Source of the DNA: Escherichia coli phage KS_S14
DNA length: 64,000 bases
Sequence record: LC788706.1
Direction: 5' to 3' (one strand)
The notes below the pieces were generated by a model. The model worked only from the letters and a program-made list of their open reading frames with translations, made no database searches and was not told the DNA's origin. Every line of letters begins with the position of its first letter. Within the stretch, counting starts at the first letter, position 1. This document shows positions 8,055 through 34,567 of this stretch, one piece after another. The position numbers and the translations under genes were made by a program.

Positions 8055-8402
8055 ATGAGCCGTACTTATCGTAAACAATCTGGTGATCAGTGGTGGAAGT
8101 CTAAAGAACAATTCTCTCAAGAATATTCTTTCATCAAAGAAAATGGCTACTGGATTCGTGTTATTTATGCCAAATCTTGGGACGACATCAAAAAAGAAAT
8201 GAAGGAAGCAACCATTCGTAATGAGAAAAAGGATGGTTATAACTGGAATTCTGTTAGTAAGAATGTTAAGTGGCATTCTAATAAAATGGTTCGTCAAGGG
8301 AATCGTCAAGAACTCCACCGCGTGATGAAAGATCCAGAAAATTACGACTATAATCGCGATCATGACATGCGTAAGCGTGGATTATGGTGGTGCTACGACT
8401 AA
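8055..8402 (+). CDS. hypothetical protein
   Basis: 115 aa ORF with GGAGG RBS. Confidence 0.5.
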   Translation: MSRTYRKQSGDQWWKSKEQFSQEYSFIKENGYWIRVIYAKSWDDIKKEMKEATIRNEKKDGYNWNSVSKNVKWHSNKMVRQGNRQELHRVMKDPENYDYNRDHDMRKRGLWWCYD

Positions 8403-8419
8403 TTTCTGAAATAATTCAT

Positions 8420-8448
8420 TTGCTAAACCTCTCTTTTCTTGTTATAAT
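8420..8448 (+). promoter_or_regulatory. sigma70-type early promoter (TTGCTA-17-TATAAT)
   Basis: Consensus hexamers with downstream ATAAATTGATGGGAGAGG box. Confidence 0.6.
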
Positions 8449-8478
8449 ATATTTATAAATTGATGGGAGAGGTTTGAA

Positions 8479-8760
8479 ATGAAAACTCGTCTAGACTGTG
8501 CTATCCACGTTGTCGAGCATAGTGTTGTTGGAACCTGTATGTCTTACCATGAGGCAGGTCGCTTAATTAAAGAACGTGTGGCAGATGTATGTGGATTGAA
8601 GATTACTGCTGAGGAAGCTGATGATCTTTTAGGCCAAGCACTTGAGAAAACCGAAATATTCCTCTGTGATTCTTGTTCTTGGTGGTGTGAAGCTCACGAA
8701 CATTCCTTCAATGATTATGATGTATGCCGTGACTGTAATGAGGAAGATACTGATGAATAA
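8479..8760 (+). CDS. hypothetical acidic Cys-rich protein
   Basis: 93 aa ORF after promoter; CDSCSWWC...CRDC motifs. Confidence 0.5.
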   Translation: MKTRLDCAIHVVEHSVVGTCMSYHEAGRLIKERVADVCGLKITAEEADDLLGQALEKTEIFLCDSCSWWCEAHEHSFNDYDVCRDCNEEDTDE

Positions 8761-9052: not shown

Positions 9053-9440
9053 TTTAGACCCTAGAATTAAATTTGCAATTACAGAAATCCAAGATCAAAT
9101 TGATGAGGACTTCACTGTTTGGTCAAGGTCTGGTAATGGAGAATATTGCCAGCTTTATAGCATGAAAATGGGTATCTCAATTGAGCTTAATATCAACTCT
9201 GAAGGTAGAGTAGAAGCCCAACCTATGTTTAGTATTCCAGGCTTCTCTGGATTTGTTGCAGGTATGAAATTGTGTCTACCAAATAACCATCTTCATCGAG
9301 TTATTTGTCAACTAGAGACTATTAAACACTTCTTACCAGAAGATAACATTAATGACCACTACCATGAAGTAGTAGCAGCTCATATGATGAAAGAATGCAA
9401 ACGTCGGAGAGAAGAACGTGAAAAAGCTAAACATCAATAG
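9045..9440 (+). CDS. hypothetical protein
   Basis: In-frame ATG with GAAGGTGAAG RBS inside ORF-track entry 9021..9440. Confidence 0.45.
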   Translation: MNNLDPRIKFAITEIQDQIDEDFTVWSRSGNGEYCQLYSMKMGISIELNINSEGRVEAQPMFSIPGFSGFVAGMKLCLPNNHLHRVICQLETIKHFLPEDNINDHYHEVVAAHMMKECKRRREEREKAKHQ

Positions 9441-22309: not shown

Positions 22310-23034
22310 TGAGTATAAAAAAGAATTTAGCAGAGATTATTAAGTTAGCTAGAGCTTGTAATGGAAAATGTGTTTCTCAGCTTAATGAACTAGAAGCACA
22401 TGCAGTAGCATTTTGTGCAGAGTTTTATCCTGCATACCTTAATGCTAGTGGGCAACCTAAATATAATAAGGATGCCGAAGAAGTTACGTTAGCTCCTTCA
22501 TATATTAGCTTGCGTCGTTTAATTCAAACCGTTGATCCTACTATTAAAGGATTCTCAGCAGATTCATTCCACGTCTTTGCAGATAAAGAACTCCCGTATT
22601 TTAAAGAAGGAAATGCAAAGTCATGTTTAGAATGTTATCCTAATATACTGATGATTCCTCAAAAGCAATGTAAATACGATCATCTTCCTAGACTTACAAA
22701 GAAAGTAGCACCACCTTATTCTTCTCTATCTGAATTAAAGCTAGGAATTGTATCTACACTTGCGCAGATTCATCTAAGTATAGTTGACGACTCAACAACA
22801 TCTAACCCTATTCTAGATGCTGCTCACTTTGAAATTTTACGTGATCCTGAACAAGCTAGAAAAGTTGCTAAGTCTGTTAAGTTTGATATATCAACAATTC
22901 TTGACACTAAACAAGAAACTAGACCTAGAGGAAGTGTAGATTATTCTGCGCTAAATTCCGAGTCATCTTACTTAGCAACATTCCTTTTCATGGCGTCAAA
23001 AGGGGTTATTCTAAAGGTTAATAAAGATGGATGA
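22309..23034 (+). CDS. hypothetical protein
   Basis: 241 aa ORF. Confidence 0.5.
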   Translation: MSIKKNLAEIIKLARACNGKCVSQLNELEAHAVAFCAEFYPAYLNASGQPKYNKDAEEVTLAPSYISLRRLIQTVDPTIKGFSADSFHVFADKELPYFKEGNAKSCLECYPNILMIPQKQCKYDHLPRLTKKVAPPYSSLSELKLGIVSTLAQIHLSIVDDSTTSNPILDAAHFEILRDPEQARKVAKSVKFDISTILDTKQETRPRGSVDYSALNSESSYLATFLFMASKGVILKVNKDG

Positions 23035-23755
23035 TTTACGTGCTGAAATTAATAAAAAGTTACGAGAGGAAGCCCGGAGGTTTCCTCTTAAAAACTTTTT
23101 GAAGTCAAATGGCTCTACTAATATAACGAAGATTAGGCAACTTCACCCTGACTTCCAACAAGAGGCCTTAAACCTTATCTTTATTAGGAAAGCTTTAAAA
23201 GTCCAGAAAGAAGAGTATGGGTATGAAAGAGTTAATTATAAGACAGCCAATCAGTTAGTAGAGATATGGTGCTATAAACATAAAGGATACTTTATGCAAA
23301 CTGCTAGATCTCACCTAGATGGGCACGGTTGTTTACAATGTGCTAGGGAAAGCAACCTAAATACACCTATCGAGAAACCGGAGGTAGAAGAAGATGTTCA
23401 GTCCCCCACATATCTCTATATCTTCTCTAATAAAGATCAGTCTAGGAAGAAATTAAAGACAAAGATTGGGGTTTCTAGAGAGCCACATCAAAGGTTTAAG
23501 AATCTAGAGTATGATAAATTGCGTGTGCCGGGTTTTGAAGATATGGAAGTATTTGGTATCTACCAGTATAAGAAAGGATCGAAAGAACTCGCTTACAAAA
23601 TAGAACACCAAGCACATAAATTTTTCGAGAATAAATTTGCTAACCATTATAAATTCGATGGAGCAAAAGAGATATTCAACATTAAAGCTGTAGAGGCAGA
23701 AGAATATCTATTAAGTCAAGGTTGCATAAAAATTTACCCAACTCCAAACTCATGA
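23027..23755 (+). CDS. zinc-ribbon plus T5orf172/GIY-YIG-like domain protein
   Basis: 242 aa; HxGxxxxxHLDGHGCLQC zinc-ribbon-like element and C-terminal YLYIF...KIGVS...EIF block. Confidence 0.5.
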   Translation: MDDLRAEINKKLREEARRFPLKNFLKSNGSTNITKIRQLHPDFQQEALNLIFIRKALKVQKEEYGYERVNYKTANQLVEIWCYKHKGYFMQTARSHLDGHGCLQCARESNLNTPIEKPEVEEDVQSPTYLYIFSNKDQSRKKLKTKIGVSREPHQRFKNLEYDKLRVPGFEDMEVFGIYQYKKGSKELAYKIEHQAHKFFENKFANHYKFDGAKEIFNIKAVEAEEYLLSQGCIKIYPTPNS

Positions 23756-23782
23756 CAAAAATTTAAAAGTAACGAAATCTGC

Positions 23783-23813
23783 TTGACATTCGTGAGAATA
23801 ATGTGTTATAATA
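23783..23813 (+). promoter_or_regulatory. sigma70-type promoter (TTGACA-19-TATAAT) facing the non-coding repeat field
   Basis: Perfect hexamers; no ORF for about 1.7 kb downstream. Confidence 0.45.
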
Positions 23814-24175
23814 ATCTCATAGATTAAAAACATCAACTTGTTTTTACCTCTAGGCCGTAGATTTACATCATTCCTCGTAGGAAAACACTTGATGACGGTT
23901 CTGTTCGCAGGTTCTCGTCAATTGTTCTTCCACACCGAGACTTAGGAGGATGTATCAAATCGCACGCGCCTAGAGGGGCTAACTCTCATGAAATGGGGGT
24001 ATATTAACTTTTAAATAACTGATAAATATTTAAAGGCAATATCTGTGTTCAAGATGATACACTTGTTGCCGCCCATCTGCTAGGATGGCACAACACTTTC
24101 TTCTAGACTCCTAAGTTTTTATGAAAACTCTAGTCAACTCAGGTGGTTTTCATGTTCCTAGAAACTTCAGCAATA

Positions 24176-24213
24176 GGCGGTTTAATACAGGGCGGTTATG
24201 GGGAGGGCGGTTA
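24176..24213. repeat. three direct copies of GGCGGTT(A/T)
   Basis: aggcggttt, gggcggtta, gggcggtta within 38 bp. Confidence 0.5.
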
Positions 24214-24256
24214 TTTCTAGGAGACATTTTTTGAAAACACATTTCCAGAAATTACT

Positions 24257-24856
24257 GTCGGATTTGCACACTGACATAGGTTTAAAAACTGGTCGGATTT
24301 GCACAATCGCCTAAGTTTTTAGGAACTCTTACTCTCCTGAAAATAGCAGCATTATTTCGGGCCGAAGGCCCGTGATTGCCTGAGTTTTTAGGGCCACAGA
24401 AATTTTCACTTGTCAAGCTATTTTGCCCCATTTTGCTAATAAAATTTTACTTTATCTGCACTTACCTCAAATTAACCCAAATCTTCTCAACTCTTCCCCA
24501 AAATCCCCGCAAATCAGGTGCTCCGCACCAAACATGCGCCCCTCTCGCAGTTCCCCCAAGTTTCTCTCGATCTCTCAACTTCTCCCCAAACCCATACAAT
24601 CACACACCATCTAATCGAAGTCACAAAAATCTTGTCGGATTCGCACAAATAAACCCATGTCGGATTTGCACATATTCTAGCTAATTCCACAGGATTCGAA
24701 CGCAGTTCGTGATTGCTGGAGTTTTTAGGAAAATTCATTGTCGGATTTGCACACTATAAAAATTTTTCGGGTCGGATTTGCACACTACCAAAAATTGTCG
24801 GATTCGCACATACACGCCCACGCGTAATCCATGGGGGCAAATGTCGGATTTGCACA
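24257..24856 (+). repeat. iteron-like array: 8 direct copies of GTCGGATT(T/C)GCACA
   Basis: Copies at 24257, 24292, 24634, 24659, 24740, 24771, 24797, 24843, same orientation, irregular spacing; several flanked by AGTTTTTAG motifs. Confidence 0.7.
24470..24600 (+). repeat. C-rich, G-poor strand-asymmetric tract
   Basis: About 130 bp with almost no G on the + strand. Confidence 0.45.
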
Positions 24857-24884
24857 AAAGCGCAGGGCAATTGCCCTGCTCGCC

Positions 24885-25070
24885 TGAATGCGAATGATAA
24901 TGAGAATAATTATCATTTAAGAAGTGGAATGCAAATGATAATTATTCTCATTTACGAAAGGGGGGTGAGAACTATTCAGGAAGTGAAACGATTCTCATTT
25001 AAAAAGTGAAATGATTATCGGTTAGACAGTGGAATGCGAATGATAATGATTCTCATTTAAGAATGGAAGT
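24885..25070. repeat. cluster of about 60-bp direct repeats each containing AATGAGAAT/ATTCTCATT palindromes
   Basis: ggaatgc(g/a)aatgataat three times; attctcattta four times; long AT-rich inverted repeats. Confidence 0.6.
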
Positions 25071-25090
25071 GAGAAACACTGTTATTTAAG

Positions 25091-25172
25091 TTATCAACAG
25101 ACTTATCAACAGCACGATTTGACTTGACAGAATCCTAGCCATTTTGAGGCGTTATTAACAGACTTATCCACA
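25091..25172 (+). promoter_or_regulatory. DnaA-box cluster
   Basis: TTATCAACA at 25091 and 25104; TTATCCACA at 25164. Confidence 0.5.
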
Positions 25173-25182
25173 GCTTATCCTA

Positions 25183-25198
25183 CTGTATATTTATACAG
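25183..25198. promoter_or_regulatory. SOS-box-like palindrome CTGTATATTTATACAG (left copy of inverted repeat)
   Basis: tactgtatatttatacagta resembles LexA consensus CTGT-N8-ACAG; partner at 28927. Confidence 0.4.
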
Positions 25199-25393
25199 TA
25201 TTCCTATGTAGTGAATAATTCTAATATAGGCCTAAAACGTCCTGAATCGCATTCTAACGCGTTTAATTTTGGTGGGGATACTAAAACAAGGGCAAAATTG
25301 GAGGAGGCTTGAAAATTAGTTAGCACGCTAACGATCACACAAGGCGACACGTAACACCCTAATCATTAGCAGGCTAACCATCGCGGGCGCGGT

Positions 25394-25416
25394 CAAATGA
25401 GAATGATTCTCATTTG
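25394..25416. repeat. 23-bp perfect palindrome CAAATGAGAATGATTCTCATTTG
   Basis: Perfect dyad; same core as the 24885-25070 repeats. Confidence 0.55.
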
Positions 25417-25566
25417 AAAATTGGGGGCACTCCCTGATAGTTGCGCCCCTTGATTATTATAGTAGTGGGCAACCGTTACGCTTTGCCCACTCCCCCCACT
25501 CATCTTGATGCCTAGACTTGCGACGGCGTACTAAAAACCGTTTATACCAGTGATTAAACCATCGTT

Positions 25567-25770
25567 TCATAAATCCTCCTCCGGTAGTCGGTGCGTGATC
25601 TTTTCCTCCTCTCCGTAGGAATCGACCAAATGTTGGTAGTAACCATCGTGATCATAAATCACTTTATCATACTCGCCACGCTCGACCGCTTGCCGGTTTT
25701 CCGGCGTATCGGGCACGTAAAAAACATCAACCATTGTACTAATTTTGGTTACAACAATTTTATTGCTCAT
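25567..25770 (-). CDS. hypothetical protein
   Basis: Start moved to second ATG with AGGGG RBS; last gene of minus-strand block. Confidence 0.4.
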   Translation of the reverse strand: MSNKIVVTKISTMVDVFYVPDTPENRQAVERGEYDKVIYDHDGYYQHLVDSYGEEEKITHRLPEEDL

Positions 25771-25870
25771 AATAACCCCTAGTAAATATATTTTTGCCAA
25801 TAGTGGCAAACGTTATCGCCACCAGCGGAATCATTTGCAGCCTCAACATTACCAGCGAAAATATATAATC

Positions 25871-26215
25871 TCATTGCGCCACCTTTCGAAACGCTGTTTC
25901 AATACTATCCGCAGTGGATTGAATATACGCTCCTTTCATTATCAGGCGCTCGGTACATACCTTACGGAAGATATTAATAAAATCATCTTCATTTTCTGCA
26001 ATTAATGCTTCACCCATAACCTGAACGTCGCAAGATGCAAAGGTCAAAAATTGAAACGCTAGTTCACGGGCAACGACCGCATTGATTTTATAATGCGCCT
26101 TGCCCTCATAAATATTAACAACGCCCTTGTAAGCTGGGGAAAGCTGATTTAAGTAATTTGCTAACAATGCAGGACGGCAATTAGCAACAAAACGATTGCC
26201 CTCATAAATAACCAT
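25871..26215 (-). CDS. hypothetical protein
   Basis: 114 aa ORF in minus-strand operon. Confidence 0.45.
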   Translation of the reverse strand: MVIYEGNRFVANCRPALLANYLNQLSPAYKGVVNIYEGKAHYKINAVVARELAFQFLTFASCDVQVMGEALIAENEDDFINIFRKVCTERLIMKGAYIQSTADSIETAFRKVAQ

Positions 26216-26338
26216 TTGACAGCCTCCCGATTAGATAGCCAGATAAAAGCATAAAAATCCCCAATGAAATGGGGTCATTTTTAAATAAGGTGGCGGTAAA
26301 ACCGCCAACCATTGCAAGGATAATAATGGTAACGCTTT

Positions 26339-26551
26339 TCATAGTACCCCACGAAACGCAGCGTAAAAGGTGGCAAAGTATTTAACCGTTTCAGCGATCA
26401 CGTTGCCGCGCTTATCAAATTTTTTCTCAGTAACACGAAAGGCATTTTTGTTACGTGCTACATATTCGATTTTACAATCTTCACGCTCGAACGTGTTAAC
26501 ATCCACCAGCTTAAAGCCTTTCGAACGTGCAAGGGAAACGTTACGAATCAT
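26339..26551 (-). CDS. hypothetical protein
   Basis: 70 aa ORF. Confidence 0.4.
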   Translation of the reverse strand: MIRNVSLARSKGFKLVDVNTFEREDCKIEYVARNKNAFRVTEKKFDKRGNVIAETVKYFATFYAAFRGVL

Positions 26552-26752
26552 TTTTATTCTCCTTTACCAGTCATGCAGCCCAGCAGATAAGAAAAAACGG
26601 CAATGCCAGCGCCGATAATAACAGCGTGAACGCCGAAAGCTATTGCAAATAACGATAAGATAGCGCCCAAGATACCCGCCAGAATAGCTCGAAAAATAAC
26701 CATTTGTAATACTCCCCTAGTTATCGGGGGATATAATATCCCCCGTTATTAA

Positions 26753-27016
26753 TTACATTAAAACAATTTTTGCAGCTTGTTTTTTGGTGCAATGTTCCGC
26801 CTTCAGGGTATCCAGCAAAAAGCCAGCCGTTTGCTGATCGATTTTATCGGCGTTATACAATTCTTGGATGGTGTTATAAGTTTTAGCAATGCCGTATTCT
26901 TGCACCATTTCGTGAATAATAACGCGGTTAGATACCCAGCCTTGAGCGGTGAACAGATGACTAGCAGAAGAATAAGCAACCATTTTAAGCCTCCAAATTT
27001 TTGGGAAAATTTTCAA
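26753..27016 (-). CDS. hypothetical protein
   Basis: 87 aa ORF. Confidence 0.4.
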   Translation of the reverse strand: MKIFPKIWRLKMVAYSSASHLFTAQGWVSNRVIIHEMVQEYGIAKTYNTIQELYNADKIDQQTAGFLLDTLKAEHCTKKQAAKIVLM

Positions 27017-27089
27017 CCGTCCTTAAACGGTGTAAAGGCATTATAACAAAAAAGGCCACCAATTATGGCGACCTTTACAAAACTTTACA

Positions 27090-27584
27090 TTAAACTACTT
27101 GTAATGTTTCAATATTGAAACATCGTTTCAATTCGTCATGCAAAACAGCATATTCCTCCCATCGGGTACTATCAGGAATATAAACAAGCTGTTTTAATCG
27201 GTTTGCATATATTACCGCTTTGTTATCGACTATCTCGACGCCACCATATTTAATAATTAATTTCATGACGGAATTAATAGGATCACCGCCGTTTACATAT
27301 GTGCCGGATTTACTTAGTTGATAATGATAAAGGCTTGCATATACGTTTTCATTCTCATACCATTCACCAGTTTCTTCGTCTTCGTAACCATCGCTACCAA
27401 AACGAGAAGCATTATCAATAGCCATTTCATGAGCGAAAGCGTCCAGATCCGTACCAGCAGGAACAAAATATTCCTCGGTGTTCCCTTCCCCGCAATAGCC
27501 AGTATGACAATCAACTAAAATGATCATATCATGTTTAGCCGTGCTCACTTCCCCTAGTGAGAAGCCGTATTTTTCTTCAGCCAT
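27090..27584 (-). CDS. hypothetical acidic protein
   Basis: 164 aa ORF with GGAGG RBS. Confidence 0.5.
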   Translation of the reverse strand: MAEEKYGFSLGEVSTAKHDMIILVDCHTGYCGEGNTEEYFVPAGTDLDAFAHEMAIDNASRFGSDGYEDEETGEWYENENVYASLYHYQLSKSGTYVNGGDPINSVMKLIIKYGGVEIVDNKAVIYANRLKQLVYIPDSTRWEEYAVLHDELKRCFNIETLQVV

Positions 27585-27649
27585 TAGTTAGCCTCCTATT
27601 AGTTAACAAGGGAATAGTAAAGTGGGGAAACAATCCCCACTAAATATTA

Positions 27650-28660
27650 TTACTCGCTTTCGATGTTAGTGGTGAAAGTAGAAATATCGATACCTTTTAC
27701 CATTTCATCAATCATTTCAGCGATGTTAAAACTTTGCACCATTTCCAGCATTGCCGCTTCCATAGCTGCGCCTGCTACCGCTTTCGCTTTCTGGTTATTC
27801 GGGGCGTACTGGTCAACCGCTACGCTCAGCAGGTTAGCAATAACTACCCGACCAATCGGCGTATCAATATAACCTTTGATCATGAATGGTGCTTTTTTAG
27901 CCGCTACTTTCGTAATTTGAGTTAATGCAATTTTGCCAGCTTCCAGTTTTGCAGCATTTACAACAGCGGATTTATTAGCGGCAACGATATTAGCGATCTT
28001 GGTCATGGTATTATTTCCTTTGTTTTCAGTAGTTTGAGTGTTAACGCTTTGAGTGTTAGAATTTACAGCATGTTTTTCCGTGTTGTCAATAGGCTGATCT
28101 TCCTCCTTCCAGAAAGAAAAGCCCGCGCTTTCAATATCCCCATCATATACATAAGGGTACACTTCCGACGGTAACAAAAAATTACCATCGCCATCAAAAG
28201 CCATTATAGCGGTATATTGAGACCCGTCGTTATCCGGCTTATGCCATCCAGCAGGTAAATACTTCCAGATAACATCTAAAAATCCCTCAATGCTAGAAAG
28301 TCCATTTATCAGATCAAGTCCAATAAGCTCAAAACCATTTATATTAAATGATTGACGGCCTGAATTGCTATGATATGCAACAATATTATTGCCCTGCGCA
28401 ATAATAAAATCGGCATCCGGCCCCGCTCCCCTACCTGTAAAGATATGGCAATCACGGTTATATAAAACAAGCGTTGCCCCTTGCTTATATAGTGGTAGAA
28501 AACTATCTATATCATAAGCGTCATAATCATCAAAAAAGTTTTGATGAATAGTTTCAGCCTTGTTAATAAAATGTTTAATGCTGGTTGACTTGCTACCATC
28601 CAGCAGGTTGCGCAATGCACCTTTTAAGACGGTTGCGTTATCTGGTTTATACAGCCTCAT
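27650..28660 (-). CDS. hypothetical protein (first gene of minus-strand block)
   Basis: 336 aa ORF with GAGGAGG RBS; Ala/Lys-rich C-terminal helical region. Confidence 0.55.
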   Translation of the reverse strand: MRLYKPDNATVLKGALRNLLDGSKSTSIKHFINKAETIHQNFFDDYDAYDIDSFLPLYKQGATLVLYNRDCHIFTGRGAGPDADFIIAQGNNIVAYHSNSGRQSFNINGFELIGLDLINGLSSIEGFLDVIWKYLPAGWHKPDNDGSQYTAIMAFDGDGNFLLPSEVYPYVYDGDIESAGFSFWKEEDQPIDNTEKHAVNSNTQSVNTQTTENKGNNTMTKIANIVAANKSAVVNAAKLEAGKIALTQITKVAAKKAPFMIKGYIDTPIGRVVIANLLSVAVDQYAPNNQKAKAVAGAAMEAAMLEMVQSFNIAEMIDEMVKGIDISTFTTNIESE

Positions 28661-28926
28661 TTGTTCGGCCTCCTCGTTAATCGGTGAGTGAATGATAAAG
28701 GTAATTTTCTAGCATAGGCAAATATTATTTTACCTTTTTATTTTCCTTGCCTAGCGTCTAATTTTATGCTAACCGCGCAGCGGTGTAATAAAGAGCAAAA
28801 CACGGCGAAGCCACCAGGCCGCAGCATTGAGGCTTTACTTTACTATTACCTTGCAGCGTTTAGCTCGTTAGAATGCGATTTAGGCCGCTTAAAATTGATT
28901 GCAGTTGTTAACACTACCTTTTTACC

Positions 28927-28966
28927 CTGTATATTTATACAGTGGAATAACCTGTGGATAAGTCTG
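28927..28966. repeat. right copy of about 40-bp inverted repeat with SOS-box-like palindrome and DnaA box
   Basis: Reverse complement of 28927-28966 matches 25159-25198 at about 34 of 40 positions. Confidence 0.55.
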
Positions 28967-29361
28967 TGCAAAAGTCCTTATATCGCCGCCTATCGTGTCA
29001 AGTTATTTCGTGCTGTGGATAACGTTGTGGATAACCTAAATGATAGTGCTTCTCACTTAGCTAGATGATTTCTTATAGTTATTATTTCTCATTAATTTAT
29101 ATGTATATTATATATCATGAAATAGTTAGTTAGCTAATGAGATTTTTCGTGATTAATAGTCTGCTAATAGTTTACTCGGTTACAGTCCACCAGCATGATT
29201 ATCATCCTAGCAATTATTATCCTGCTATCTTTCCGATGCATACTAACAAATAAAAGTCAATTAATTTATTTCATAAAATAAGTAGTTATCCACTGGAAAA
29301 TAAAAGTCAAGTGGATAACTAGGAAAATTTCATTTTTGCTTTTGGGGATAAGTTATCAACA
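28953..29361. promoter_or_regulatory. DnaA-box cluster in divergent control region
   Basis: TGTGGATAA at 28953, 29024, 29036; TTATCCAC at 29286; GTGGATAAC at 29311; TTATCAACA at 29353. Confidence 0.5.
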
Positions 29362-29766
29362 AGGCTAGAATGCACCTAAAACGCCCTAGAACGCGATGAA
29401 AGTTTTAGCCATGCCATTGCATTGCCTACCCTCGTTTATCGCTACCACGAGCTTTTTAGTTTTTGTCAAGTAGGGCAAGGCAAATATAAATGAAAAAATT
29501 ACTTGCCAACCTGCTGGGTTTTATGGTATTCGCGCGCCCGTTTCTTTTAATTTTAGGCCGTCGCCGCACGCCGTCCGGTGAGTTTTTGTCTTTACATTTC
29601 TTTACAAAAATAAGGTTGCGCCATTTTCGGGAATCCCCTATTATTTATCTCGTAGGGCGGCAATGACGAACTACACGGCGGGAAGTTTACCGCCACGCTC
29701 TTTAAAAATTGGGTACATCTTAAAGCCTATCGGCGGTAAACTTATACATTATAAGGAATCGACGAT

Positions 29767-29970
29767 ATGAAACAAACTTTATTGATCACTGGCAAGCCTA
29801 TTAAGGCACTAGATAGCAAAACAAAAAAATTGTTGACAGTAGCGCAAAGATCGGTAAAATACCGATTCACGCAGTACAAGAAAGGCCGCCAGCAAGGTTT
29901 AGAAATGATCTGGCGAAATATTATGATTGACTTGAAAGAAAATCATAAAAAACTGCAAAAAATTGTTTGA
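29767..29970 (+). CDS. hypothetical basic protein
   Basis: 67 aa; first ORF of + strand pre-early-like operon. Confidence 0.4.
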   Translation: MKQTLLITGKPIKALDSKTKKLLTVAQRSVKYRFTQYKKGRQQGLEMIWRNIMIDLKENHKKLQKIV

Positions 29971-30136
29971 CAATCTAGCCGATAGGTTTTAAGATGTACT
30001 CAGTTCGATAAGAGCGATAACTTGATAAAATTTGACGGTCGGTGCTTACCATAATGCATCCCGCCCCCTAACTGGGATATAGCGGCCTACGTGGAGTTCT
30101 TTAAATTGGTTAAACTGGCGAGCGGATTGTTACTTA

Positions 30137-30164
30137 TTACCTGCTAGTATTTTCTAGCAGGTAA
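30137..30164 (+). promoter_or_regulatory. intercistronic palindrome ttacctgctag/ctagcaggtaa
   Basis: 11-bp perfect arms with 6-nt AT loop between genes. Confidence 0.4.
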
Positions 30165-30200
30165 TGCGGAACAATCCCCAAATAACTAGGAGTTTATATT

Positions 30201-30452
30201 ATGCAAAACGTTATTACCGCGCCTAAAATTGGTCAATCCGTCTTTATTCCTTTCGTTACTAAAACGGATGAATTAACCGGAAAAGCCGAACGCATTAAAG
30301 GTGCGGCGCTTATGCCGTTCGATACAATCGACGCGGTATACGCTGAAACGGAACGCAGTAACAACGGCAAACCAGTTTTTAGCGTTCGCGTTAAATCCGG
30401 TGACGTTGTAAAGGTTGTTCAACGCAACGAAAAATGGGAAGCTGTTTTGTAA
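30201..30452 (+). CDS. hypothetical protein
   Basis: 83 aa ORF with AGGAG RBS. Confidence 0.45.
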   Translation: MQNVITAPKIGQSVFIPFVTKTDELTGKAERIKGAALMPFDTIDAVYAETERSNNGKPVFSVRVKSGDVVKVVQRNEKWEAVL

Positions 30453-30466
30453 TTTAGTGTTAACTT

Positions 30467-30494
30467 TATATTCCCCTGAAATATGGGGAATATA
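30467..30494 (+). promoter_or_regulatory. intercistronic palindrome tatattcccc/ggggaatata
   Basis: 10-bp perfect arms, 8-nt loop. Confidence 0.4.
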
Positions 30495-30553
30495 ACGATT
30501 AACATTAAGTTAATCATTAAATCCCTTAAATTAAACTAATAGGAGTTTTTACC

Positions 30554-30961
30554 ATGACTAACGCAAAAACCGCAAAATTCGCATGGAATGAAGAAAACAC
30601 TCAGAAAGCTGTTACCATGTATCAGCAGTTAATCAATGAAAACGGTTTAGATTTCGCAAATAGCGACGGTCTGAAAGAGATTGCGAAAGCAGTAGGCGCG
30701 GCCTCCCCCGTGTCAGTTCGCTCAAAATTGACCAGCGCGAAAGCATATCAAAAAAGCGATAAGCCGCGCAAAGTAGGCGGCGGTAGCTCTGTGCGTAAAG
30801 CTCATTATGTACGCGTTATCGCTAAACATGCTATTGATTCCGGCATTATCAAAGACGCCGACGATCTGGCAAGTCTGGAAAGTGCAAAACTTGAAACGCT
30901 GGACGCAGTAGCGCAACTGTTAGGCGTTGCCGATGAAGTAAAACAAGCCGCAGGCGAATAA
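30554..30961 (+). CDS. pre-early protein, possibly A2-like
   Basis: 135 aa; immediately upstream of the A1-like gene; assignment by position and size only. Confidence 0.35.
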   Translation: MTNAKTAKFAWNEENTQKAVTMYQQLINENGLDFANSDGLKEIAKAVGAASPVSVRSKLTSAKAYQKSDKPRKVGGGSSVRKAHYVRVIAKHAIDSGIIKDADDLASLESAKLETLDAVAQLLGVADEVKQAAGE

Positions 30962-31339: not shown

Positions 31340-33010
31340 ATGATTATTTCCGCAGAAAAACAAACCGTTATCCTGAAAATGGCCGCTGACTTTAATTTCT
31401 ATGGTAAACGTCTGCGCGCTACTAAACTGGAAGTCTGCGACGATATATCAAAAGCGGTCTACGATACTACTAAACACTCCACCGCTATCTGCGACTGGCT
31501 GGAAGCAAATAAACCAGCTAAACCGAAAGCTGCAAAAGTAGCAAAAGCCATTAAAAACGATGAGCGCCCAGAAGCGGCGGGAATTGTTTCTAGTACGGTT
31601 GAGCAATGGGAAGTAAAACAGGGTAAACGCTTTATTATTACGTCGATTCAGAATAATACTTTCCCGCATAAAAACTTTTTGTCCTCGCTTGAACAATACG
31701 CTAAATATATCGGCGCTGATTTGCTTGTTTCTAAGTATATTTATAATAAAAACGGCTTCCAGAATGGAGAAGGTGCAGACGGTATCAAATACGATCCCGC
31801 ATTTGATAAATATATTTGCAGCAAAAACGTGTTTTTAAATAACCGCCGCTTTGCTTTCATGGCTGAAATTAATGTTTTGCCCACCGCAGATTATCCGCTT
31901 TCAGGATTCGCAGAAACTGCAACGGCTTTAAATATTGAAGGGCTGGCAATTGGTCATGCTAAAATTACCGCCGAAAGCGTGCCAGCTCTCAAAGGTGAGG
32001 TAGTGCGCCGCATGTATTCAACCGGAACGGCGACGTTAAAAAACTATATCCAGCAAAAAGCAGGGCAAAAAGCCGAGGCGCTGCATAACTTCGGCGCGCT
32101 GATTGTTGAGTTCGACGAGGACGGGGAATTTTTTGTTCGCCAGCTTGAAACAATGGATGAAAGCGGGGTGTTTTATGATCTGAACGTTTGCGCTACTCCT
32201 GCCGGATGTTATGAAACATCGGGACATGTTTTAGGCTTGCAATATGGCGACATCCACGCAGAAAAATTAGATGAGGAGTGCGCCGCCGCATCTTGGGGGC
32301 ATGGTGACACCTACGGGCTTGTGGATATTCTTAAACCAAAATATCAATTCGTCCATGACGTGCATGATTTTACATCACGCAACCATCACAACCGCGCATC
32401 CGGTGTATTCCTAGCAAAACAATACGCCGCCGGACGTGATAAGGTATTAGATGATCTTATCGATACGGGGCGCGTATTGGAATCAATGGAGCGCGATTTT
32501 TCTCAAACGATCATCGTAGAATCAAACCATGATTTAGCTTTATCCCGTTGGCTGGATGATCGTAACGCCAACATTAAAGACGACCCTGCAAACGCGGAAC
32601 TATATCACCGCCTGAATGCCGCTATTTACGCCGCAATCGGTGAGCATGATGAAACGTTTAACGTGCTTGATTATGCGCTGCGCAAAGTTGCAGGTTGTGA
32701 GTTTAACGCCATTTTCCTAACGACTGACCAGTCTTTCAAGATTGCAGGCATTGAATGCGGCGTACACGGTCACAATGGCATTAACGGCAGCCGTGGCAAT
32801 CCTAAACAATTTAAGAAATTGGGCAAGTTAAACACGGGGCATACGCATACCGCCAGCATTTACGGCGGTGTATATACCGCTGGCGTGACTGGTAGTCTGG
32901 ACATGGGTTACAACGTTGGCGCGTCTAGCTGGACTCAAACGCATATTATTACCTATGCAAACGGTCAACGCACTTTGATTGACTTTAAGAATGGTAAATT
33001 CTTTGCGTAA
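31340..33010 (+). CDS. A1: A1-like pre-early protein, calcineurin-like metallophosphoesterase (putative nuclease)
   Basis: 556 aa, the size recalled for T5 A1; motifs GDIHAEK, HDVHD, ESNHD, GHNGINGSRGN, GHTHT. Confidence 0.6.
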   Translation: MIISAEKQTVILKMAADFNFYGKRLRATKLEVCDDISKAVYDTTKHSTAICDWLEANKPAKPKAAKVAKAIKNDERPEAAGIVSSTVEQWEVKQGKRFIITSIQNNTFPHKNFLSSLEQYAKYIGADLLVSKYIYNKNGFQNGEGADGIKYDPAFDKYICSKNVFLNNRRFAFMAEINVLPTADYPLSGFAETATALNIEGLAIGHAKITAESVPALKGEVVRRMYSTGTATLKNYIQQKAGQKAEALHNFGALIVEFDEDGEFFVRQLETMDESGVFYDLNVCATPAGCYETSGHVLGLQYGDIHAEKLDEECAAASWGHGDTYGLVDILKPKYQFVHDVHDFTSRNHHNRASGVFLAKQYAAGRDKVLDDLIDTGRVLESMERDFSQTIIVESNHDLALSRWLDDRNANIKDDPANAELYHRLNAAIYAAIGEHDETFNVLDYALRKVAGCEFNAIFLTTDQSFKIAGIECGVHGHNGINGSRGNPKQFKKLGKLNTGHTHTASIYGGVYTAGVTGSLDMGYNVGASSWTQTHIITYANGQRTLIDFKNGKFFA

Positions 33011-33832: not shown

Positions 33833-34567
33833 ATGAATAAAGCTATTATGAATATTTCCCGCAGCTTCCCGCATATTTCCCGCGTCATGATTTGGGATTT
33901 AGACGGCACTATCATTAATTCTTTCCACCGCGTAGCGCCTTGCTTTGATAGCGAGGGCAATTTAGATTTAAATAAGTATAAAAATGAAGCGTGTAAACAT
34001 CATTTAATAATGCAGGATACATTATTACCATTAGTTGAATACATGCGCCAGTGCATGAACGACGCAAATACTTTAAACATTATTTGTACCGCTCGACTAA
34101 TGAGCAAGTCGGACTATTATTATTTGCGTAAACAAGGGTTGCGCGGTCGTGGGGATAGTAATATCCGCGTTTTTTCCCGTGATACACTACACAAATATTT
34201 TGAGGCTGATAAAGTTAGCGAGATATACCACAGTAAGGACGCAGTTTATAAATCTTATTATTTTGAATTATTTAAACAGTTATATCCGAACGCTGATTTT
34301 ACAATGATTGATGATCATAAAGGTGTATTATCAGCGGCGGCATCATACGGATTTAAAACGCTGGACGCGCAAGCCGTTAACGATATTCTATCAATCGGCG
34401 TGGCATTAATAGGTGAAACCTTTATTGATGAATCCCTCGATGATGATAATGATTATCAATTCCTAGCCGACCGTTTAAAATTATGTTGGGAAGGTATGAC
34501 CGAGGAAGAACGCGCAGAATATAGTTGCAGCCCGCAACAATATATTGAGAAATTAAAAGTTGCGTAA
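33833..34567 (+). CDS. dmp: HAD-superfamily 5'-deoxyribonucleotidase (Dmp-like)
   Basis: 244 aa; N-terminal IWDLDGTI (DxDGT HAD motif); size recalled for T5 Dmp. Confidence 0.55.
   Translation: MNKAIMNISRSFPHISRVMIWDLDGTIINSFHRVAPCFDSEGNLDLNKYKNEACKHHLIMQDTLLPLVEYMRQCMNDANTLNIICTARLMSKSDYYYLRKQGLRGRGDSNIRVFSRDTLHKYFEADKVSEIYHSKDAVYKSYYFELFKQLYPNADFTMIDDHKGVLSAAASYGFKTLDAQAVNDILSIGVALIGETFIDESLDDDNDYQFLADRLKLCWEGMTEEERAEYSCSPQQYIEKLKVA

Follow-up and report, generated by a model that had tools for sequence, protein, structure and literature searches.

A T5-type pre-early right-arm cassette of probable host-takeover genes in Escherichia coli phage KS_S14, including a two-part gene 011

Introduction

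What do the minus-strand genes at positions 25567-28660 of Escherichia coli phage KS_S14 (sequence record LC788706.1) do for the phage: do they serve to take over the host, do they protect the phage DNA against host defence systems, or are they bystanders of the DNA that carries them? The window analyzed here is the whole 64,000-nucleotide stretch of phage DNA within which this block lies. A preliminary description of the window regarded the block as an operon of uncharacterized proteins, candidates for host takeover or anti-defence, located in the region that enters the cell first in T5-like phages. We conclude, with a probability of roughly 0.85, that the stretch is a pre-early right-arm cassette of host-takeover effectors, which lies on the first-entering DNA, is dispensable on laboratory hosts, and is mosaic between phages. 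Gene identity, synteny, promoter conservation, selection and domain structure are established here for this phage, and the biochemistry and toxicity are taken from the T5 literature. The coordinates of all features are collected in Table 1.

Placement of the block in a T5-like genome

The stretch 25000-29500 matched 469 phage records, the best of which were T5-like Salmonella and Escherichia phages with ~93% identity, and several of the matches to the block fall inside the annotated left terminal repeat of related genomes. Beyond the block, the plus strand carries A2 (30554-30961), A1 (31340-33010, 556 residues) and dmp (33833-34567), followed by the gene of a pb5-type receptor-binding protein and then the tape measure gene. 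This match profile, together with A2, A1, dmp and the flanking tail genes, identifies the window, as judged from its sequence, as a T5-like genome (Demerecviridae) whose assembly contains the terminal repeat only once. Its orientation is opposite to that of the T5 reference.

The block forms an arm that is divergent from the A2-A1-dmp arm and adjoins the injection-stop repeats; it is therefore assigned to the right arm of the first-step-transfer region, i.e., the T5-type pre-early right-arm cassette (T5.011-017). The placement in the first-entering region that the preliminary description had suggested is thus upheld by the location of the block in the terminal repeat, by its position next to A2, A1 and dmp, and by the matches to annotated left terminal repeats. 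Only one copy of the terminal repeat lies within the window, where the repeat duplication itself is not visible. One flank carries plus-strand genes that are taken as early genes by T5 gene order, of which the one at 23027-23755 was scanned, and the other carries late tail genes. Because the single terminal repeat is flanked in this way, the source assembly represents, in collapsed or circularly permuted form, a genome whose terminal repeats are long and direct.

Gene content and selection

The cassette resembles T5.011-T5.017 (NC_005859, 6495-9157) in gene order, strand, promoter, position of the closing terminator, and bracketing inverted repeats. Searches with blastp and tblastn against the T5 terminal repeat gave protein identities of 68-99%, and the same gene order was seen in 30 related loci. 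It differs from T5 in the absence of T5.016 and of the HNH gene hegG, in a 013 that is 10 residues shorter, in a 164-residue gene at a place where T5 has a putative terminator only, and in a 46-residue gene between 014 and 015. Of the 30 loci, nearly all carry 011-015 and most carry 017; the 164-residue gene occurs in about half and the 46-residue gene in about 13, and the combinations are mosaic. The core thus consists of 011, 012, 013, 014, 015 and 017, and the accessory set of the 164-, 46- and 37-residue open reading frames (ORFs), 016 and hegG. According to Davison, this arm varies strongly, natural deletions occur in it, and some natural phages lack parts of the block.

All six genes of the program-made ORF list are present on the minus strand, where the preliminary description had placed them. 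The starts of two of them, called as 87 residues (26753-27016) and 80 residues (25567-25809), were moved to internal ATGs because of homology to T5.012 and T5.017, the PHROG alignments, and the position of the ribosome-binding sites; the upstream start of the 87-residue call is a TTG, and the internal ATGs are preceded by GGAGG in the resulting 76-residue gene and by GGGG in the 67-residue gene. The two small hydrophobic ORFs that had been found by hand also proved to be genuine, with PHROG matches, strongly hydrophobic stretches and signs of selection, at coordinates that differ from the first estimates by a few bases. A ninth ORF of 37 residues was added, the ATG of which overlaps the stop codon of the 67-residue gene (ATGA overlap) and is preceded by GGAGGAGG. 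This ORF appears translationally coupled to the 67-residue gene and has an equivalent at T5 9154-9264. As it is located before a terminator-like hairpin, the unit reaches ~150 nt past the left border first drawn for the block. Clear Shine-Dalgarno sites precede all ORFs except that of 46 residues.

Selection was assessed against the 30 related loci, which were drawn from IMG/VR; all pairs include the window sequence, so the estimates are not independent, yet they are consistent. Purifying selection acts on every ORF, with ratios of nonsynonymous to synonymous substitution rates (dN/dS) of 0.04-0.23: 0.23 for the 336-residue protein, 0.15 for the 164-residue protein, 0.12 for 012, 0.09 for 013 (49 residues), 0.06 for 014, 0.23 for the 46-residue peptide, 0.04 for 015, 0.10 for 017, and 0.23 for the 37-residue ORF, the last from just four pairs.

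Scans of all ORFs against Pfam, PHROGs, NCBIfam and PADLOC returned just DUF7566 and unnamed PHROGs, and sequence searches of the PDB returned nothing for six of the proteins or for a profile of the C-terminal module of gene 011. A weak PDB match to LAMTOR2/roadblock (E 0.5) was not borne out by the fold search. The earlier statement that no motif could be recognized is thus nearly true, the exceptions being DUF7566 on the 336-residue protein and PF26847 on a syntenic 113-residue protein of a related contig.

Host-takeover functions

The reading as host takeover relies on the orthologous genes of T5. Of 13 pre-early and early T5 genes cloned by Mahata et al., 008, 011 and 015 were toxic (PMC8201957). 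Annor et al. cloned all 17 pre-early genes (2026 preprint) and found 011, 013 and 015 to be toxic within the right arm; expression of T5.011 gave uneven nucleoids and slight elongation, overexpression of T5.013, which has two membrane segments, led to lysis, and expression of T5.015 produced elongated cells with trapped nucleoids (bioRxiv 10.64898/2026.04.02.716235). Since the effects of these three T5 genes are known, host takeover is supported by orthology, and the orthologues in this phage may be expected to act as they do in T5. The term "uncharacterized" is by the same token out of date for 011, 013 and 015, and remains apt for the others, which are without known activity; no further literature was found on T5.011-014 and 017. 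Pre-early expression has been demonstrated for Bas33.

Based on these data, the following course is proposed. The cassette lies in the terminal repeat, within the first ~8% of the genome to enter the cell, bracketed by DnaA-box inverted repeats beside the injection-stop region. Host RNA polymerase would read it from a strong T5-like sigma-70 promoter and, by analogy to T5, would do so while DNA entry is paused ahead of second-step transfer. The 114-residue T5.015 orthologue would then bind host Ung and nick the resulting abasic sites, thereby arresting host replication and division; the 336-residue T5.011 orthologue would disturb nucleoid organization; and the 49-residue T5.013 orthologue, probably along with the 46-residue peptide, would insert into the inner membrane. 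For the 49-residue peptide, two membrane-spanning segments are predicted (grand average of hydropathy 1.75; maximum 19-residue hydropathy 2.54), as expected of a T5.013-type product. The cassette also encodes further conserved small products without a known target, namely 012, 014 (basic), 017 (acidic), the acidic 164-residue protein and the basic 37-residue peptide.

Several points weigh against this proposal. Every function is carried over from T5 orthologues of 68-99% identity, and for five of the nine products no activity has been described in any phage (012, 014, 017, the 164-residue protein, and the 46- and 37-residue peptides counted together). Toxicity on overexpression is no proof of a takeover role; the T5 deletion from hegG to 017 is viable and shows normal host-DNA degradation with smaller plaques (bioRxiv 10.64898/2026.04.02.716235). 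Additionally, terminator-like hairpins follow the first two genes, and the designation as a single operon may not hold; the preliminary description simplified in this respect, as the minus-strand block may comprise up to three units or attenuated read-through.

The 114-residue nickase and its mislabelled neighbour

T5.015 binds host Ung and nicks the abasic sites generated by Ung, so that replication and division come to a halt (Mahata et al. 2021, PMC8201957). The lysines replaced in its inactive mutant, K85A K94A K111A, are needed for toxicity (PMC8201957). The 114-residue protein of this phage has the same length as T5.015, is 93% identical to it, with eight residues differing, and carries K85, K94 and K111, which T5.015 alone has among the T5 pre-early proteins. 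Furthermore, precomputed matches to a newer Pfam release place PF26847 (Phage_T5_AP_Endonuclease) on a 113-residue protein at the syntenic position of a closely related contig. By sequence, the 114-residue protein belongs to the T5.015 endonuclease family, which acts at apurinic/apyrimidinic (AP) sites, and it is assigned as the orthologue of the Ung-dependent AP-site nickase.

This assignment conflicts with several public labels. PHROG 4227, the T5 RefSeq record and the record of phage Stokescottia all name the 70-residue, T5.014-type protein as the Ung-dependent abasic-site endonuclease; in T5 coordinates, the mislabelled T5.014 lies at 8086-8298 and the true nickase T5.015 at 8300-8644. The PHROG 4227 label was rejected for the 70-residue protein, which is too short to hold K85, K94 and K111. 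As 70 residues cannot carry these lysines and PF26847 falls on the syntenic 113-residue protein, the predicted nickase gene is the one at 25871-26215.

Gene 011: a constant module behind a variable domain

Pfam DUF7566 (PF24450) matches residues 2-335 of the 336-residue protein (E = 6.4e-114; 381 bits vs a cut-off of 27), and most members of this family match only over the C-terminal third. No literature mention of DUF7566 was found. The AlphaFold model, built with 67 diverse homologues, is confident (mean predicted local distance difference test, pLDDT, 85) and predicts an acidic alpha/beta N-domain (residues 1-190, isoelectric point 4.5), a disordered linker rich in Asn and Thr (191-218), and a six-helix C-domain (219-336). 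The composition agrees with the Gly/Asp-rich and Ala/Lys-rich halves of the preliminary description, with 10.0% Asp and 9.5% Gly in the N-domain and 18.6% Ala and 9.3% Lys in the C-domain. The fold comparison proposed there was run with Foldseek against viral models and returned uncharacterized phage proteins only.

An exhaustive HMMER search collected 686 clusters at 50% identity, of which only ~20 cover the N-domain; the remaining clusters share just the C-terminal ~120 residues. This C-module occurs alone (115-135 residues) or is fused to the C-terminal side of unrelated sequences, HIRAN and SH3-like domains among them. Stand-alone modules are encoded by large uncultured phages, beside genes for SNF2 helicase, ThyX, dUTPase and ribonucleotide reductase, as well as in runs of small early-type genes on a 372-kb contig, and a HIRAN fusion lies amid small genes of a 52-kb phage contig. 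In one 100-kb contig, the module, stand-alone or fused, was seen near genes for TerC, TerD and NAPRTase.

Throughout the T5-like phages, the C-domain is 91-98% identical (dN/dS 0.034), and the N-domain falls into classes of 93-95, 86, 61-68 and 33-35% identity (dN/dS 0.29, with a higher synonymous rate). The constant C-domain and the divergent N-domain classes thus show that gene 011 joins a constant module to a swapping, fast-evolving domain; this description of the gene as a near-invariant C-module with a mosaic N-domain is new here.

The same gene may encode a second, shorter product. The sequence AAGGA lies nine bases upstream of Met219, at which the constant module begins, and 126 of the 139 fusion-type members carry a Met in a window of 12 residues at the domain start, vs 9-19% at most control offsets; one control offset inside the domain is an exception at 86%, which reflects a conserved structural Met. 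In most of the other 13 fusion-type members, a Met lies slightly further upstream. In a further 92 family members, the module is preceded by few residues or none, and the stand-alone homologues that were examined begin at the equivalent of Met219. Thus, a conserved internal start, a ribosome-binding site and an independently occurring short form, as expected of a nested gene, are all present.

Codon usage points to the same part of the gene. Among 23 T5-like alleles, where residues are identical, the fraction of codons that are identical too reaches its maximum of 0.95-0.96 over residues 193-210, i.e., within the structurally disordered linker, and is mostly 0.65-0.85 elsewhere. Even where the N-domain of an allele is just 33-35% identical and its linker residues differ, the -35 box, a TAnnnT -10 element and AAAGGAAA persist; AAAGGAAA is invariant among T5-like alleles. 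A functional internal promoter in the linker of gene 011 is suggested by this conservation. Its weak point is that promoter-like matches are common in this AT-rich DNA (23 found vs 15 expected), and that of the nested product is a weak Shine-Dalgarno sequence in two of five distant fusions.

Annor et al. remark that 011 "resists functional predictions", and native 011 could not be cloned in their hands, although a synonymously recoded version could (bioRxiv 10.64898/2026.04.02.716235). We infer that a toxic fragment, expressed internally without control, would account for this difference. On this evidence, the chances that the short C-module product is real are about even. Slightly less probable, and offered tentatively, is the wider proposal that gene 011 is two genes in one, in which a hypervariable N-domain is fused to a 118-residue module that is also made alone from the linker promoter and ribosome-binding site, and in which the module would tether varied effectors to a conserved nucleoid target.

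Nested in-frame genes are familiar in other phages, such as lambda C/Nu3, T7 4A/4B and phiX174 A/A*, which are cited here as functional analogies only. As predicted for gene 011, such genes yield a long and a short product with a common C-terminus, and translation of the short product begins at an internal ATG behind a ribosome-binding site of its own. There is no relation in sequence or fold to these genes, and the two products of gene 011 are predicted from the sequence; unlike Nu3, moreover, the gene 011 product is pre-early and not a virion assembly protein. T4 Ndd, the nucleoid disruption protein, is likewise a functional analogy. It is early, non-essential, toxic and disorganizes the host nucleoid, and T5.011 is reported to be toxic with an effect on the nucleoid, but no sequence or structural similarity between the two is detectable. 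A virion or scaffold role for the gene 011 product was considered and rejected, since the protein is absent from the BF23 virion proteome.

Some further features of the linker were observed. Some metagenomic T5-like contigs carry gene 011 in two pieces, with the break in or close to the A-run of the linker; a called protein of 215 residues ends in ...ENKG, and in other contigs, a C-module gene of 118 residues starts at the internal Met and the upstream ORF ends at its ATG. These splits could be natural variants or low-coverage homopolymer errors. Additionally, the plus strand opposite the linker carries, at 28034-28062, a promoter-like site in antisense orientation (TTGAGT, 17-nt spacer, TAGAAT, with a TG extension), which coincides with the synonymous-conservation peak.

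The acidic proteins and the case for anti-defence

The preliminary description left open whether these genes serve in anti-defence. In this alternative, at least one cassette gene would be a dedicated factor that shields the later-entering DNA from restriction, CRISPR or RecBCD, the best candidates being the acidic 164-residue protein, the acidic 67-residue protein and the variable N-domain of 011. We regard such a factor as unlikely, while taking it more seriously than the other alternatives. The insensitivity of T5-like phages to restriction, CRISPR and RecBCD is thought to be a pre-early function, the gene for which is unidentified (PMC10644984; bioRxiv 10.1101/866236). The cassette is accessory and mosaic, as an anti-defence set might be; the N-domain of 011 comes in discrete allele classes (33-95%) on a constant C-domain, which is typical of arms-race proteins; and three of the products are strongly acidic, as DNA mimics are.

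However, acidity alone is weak evidence, and none of the products resembles a known anti-defence protein or family. Comparison with characterized anti-defence proteins, i.e., the DNA mimics Ocr, ArdA and Gam and other curated families, revealed no similarity in sequence or fold, and the literature does not map the restriction insensitivity of T5 to these cassette genes. T5 is restriction-insensitive without the 164-residue gene, and the same core genes are carried by loci of 74-78% identity, which, to judge by the phage names, are probably Epseptimavirus relatives that are restriction-sensitive. Davison, for his part, preferred T5p007, a universally conserved gene of the other arm (bioRxiv 10.1101/866236). 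An anti-defence role of the cassette is therefore graded as possible but unsupported, and host takeover is retained as the preferred reading. The anti-retron protein Rad of T5-like phages was also sought and was not located in this region.

The 164-residue protein has an isoelectric point of 4.5 and a net charge of -17 and is confined to T5-like phages (18 clusters); its model is confident (pLDDT 88) and shows no recognizable fold. A protein- or DNA-mimicking inhibitor is a reasonable guess for this product, yet T5 is insensitive to restriction in its absence. In some homologues, the acidic loop YEDEETG is replaced by a 17-18-residue insertion of the form CPEC...C(E/P)DC, which is zinc-ribbon-like.

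Regulatory elements and a possible role in cis

The promoter region of the cassette is nearly base-for-base identical to the promoter annotated upstream of T5.011 (NC_005859, 6411-6489). Of the hairpins listed in Table 1, the one after the 164-residue gene is strong and resembles an intrinsic terminator, and the one after the 336-residue gene has a weak T tail and stands where a putative terminator is annotated in T5. The stem of the closing hairpin was read by eye after the scanner had passed over it because of its long loop. The two arms of the bracketing inverted repeat are 73% complementary, and their DnaA boxes are spaced 12 and 61 nt alike in both. In T5-like phages, such IRD'spacerIRC' and IRCspacerIRD elements have been linked to the injection stop signal (Davison, bioRxiv 10.1101/866236).

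This architecture raises the question of whether the DNA acts mainly in cis, the segment between the DnaA-box repeats being an injection-stop structure and the genes mere passengers. The cassette is bracketed exactly by the 147-nt inverted repeats with their paired DnaA boxes, Davison counts both repeats in the stop signal, phages that lack parts of the block occur in nature, and the T5 deletion mutant is viable. However, the spacing of the repeats varies from 1851 to 4258 bp between phages (bioRxiv 10.1101/866236), which speaks against a length-dependent function, all ORFs are under purifying selection, 014 (0.06) and 015 (0.04) very strongly, the promoter and ribosome-binding sites are strong and conserved, and three products have clear cellular effects. 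A role mainly in cis is accordingly improbable. That the cassette proteins are structural or replication components located by chance in the terminal repeat can be dismissed, since searches of Pfam, PHROGs, NCBIfam and the PDB found no homology to such families (clear homology of this kind would, by the preliminary description, have refuted its proposal), the BF23 virion proteome contains no pre-early products, and the block is deletable in T5. The reading as a host-takeover cassette thus remains the one we prefer.

Around the cassette, 24250-25430 is a repeat-dense, non-coding region of the injection-stop type with at least eight copies of GTCGGATT(T/C)GCACA and several palindromes of the AATGAGAAT-ATTCTCATT type, including a perfect 20-nt pair at 24899-24952. 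Between the divergent pre-early arms, ~1.5 kb (28700-30200) carry no convincing gene, at a place where T5 carries hegG, and further DnaA-box-like sites are clustered at 29286-29361. An Rfam scan of 23500-30500 matched no RNA family.

Table 1. Features of the pre-early right-arm cassette and its borders (positions in the window).
Feature	Position	Strand	Basis or remark
336-residue protein, T5.011 orthologue (90% identity), Pfam DUF7566	27650-28660	-	ORF listing, homology
Candidate internal promoter in linker codons of gene 011 (TTGACA, 18-nt spacer, TAAATT)	28060-28089	-	10/12 consensus matches
Candidate nested product of gene 011: AAGGA 28020-28016, in-frame ATG (Met219) 28006-28004, 118-residue C-module to shared stop	27650-28020	-	
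164-residue acidic accessory protein, without T5 counterpart	27090-27584	-	ORF listing
76-residue protein, T5.012 orthologue (83% identity)	26753-26983	-	GGAGG before ATG at 26983
49-residue hydrophobic hairpin peptide, T5.013 orthologue (68% identity, 10 residues shorter)	26554-26703	-	Homology, hydropathy
70-residue basic protein (isoelectric point 9.9), T5.014 orthologue (98.6% identity)	26339-26551	-	Homology
46-residue hydrophobic accessory peptide, overlaps both neighbours	26202-26342	-	PHROG match, hydropathy
114-residue protein, T5.015 orthologue (93% identity), predicted Ung-dependent AP-site nicking endonuclease	25871-26215	-	Homology
67-residue acidic protein (isoelectric point 4.6), T5.017 orthologue (90% identity)	25567-25770	-	Homology
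37-residue very basic ORF (isoelectric point 11.3), 84% conserved in T5 DNA, unannotated in NC_005859	25457-25570	-	
Sigma-70 promoter of cassette (TTGCCT, 18-nt spacer, TATCAT; A-rich stretch upstream)	28692-28721	-	Promoter scan
Hairpin directly after 336-residue gene, weak T tail; putative T5 terminator annotated at equivalent position	27621-27641	-	
Intrinsic-terminator-like hairpin (11-bp stem then TTTTGTT), strong, after 164-residue gene	27051-27076	-	
Closing hairpin and T-run	25416-25449	-	At position of annotated T5 terminator (9275-9296); T5 alignment
Left arm of 147-nt inverted repeat, paired DnaA boxes (IRD'spacerIRC' type)	25067-25213		Brackets cassette
Right arm of same inverted repeat (IRCspacerIRD type), three consensus DnaA boxes	28912-29058		

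Significance

With a known nickase and two known toxic proteins in the block, the locus is ordinary, i.e., another copy of a cassette that has already been taken apart in T5 through ectopic expression and deletion. What it adds is the separation of the core from the accessory genes of the cassette and the exposure of the nickase label that has been placed on the neighbouring 70-residue gene, an annotation error in PHROGs and RefSeq that will spread through PHROG-based annotation pipelines. Screens for the anti-restriction or anti-RecBCD function of T5-like phages, which has yet to be assigned to a gene, could reasonably include the 164-residue protein.

For the unexplained toxic gene 011, a concrete idea emerges, namely a constant module, a variable domain and a probable second product. 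If true, a two-product gene 011 could account for the failure to clone the native gene, and T5.011 would be the founding example of a new family of modular phage proteins for host manipulation, the C-module of which may be a widespread, unstudied early-gene building block of large phages.

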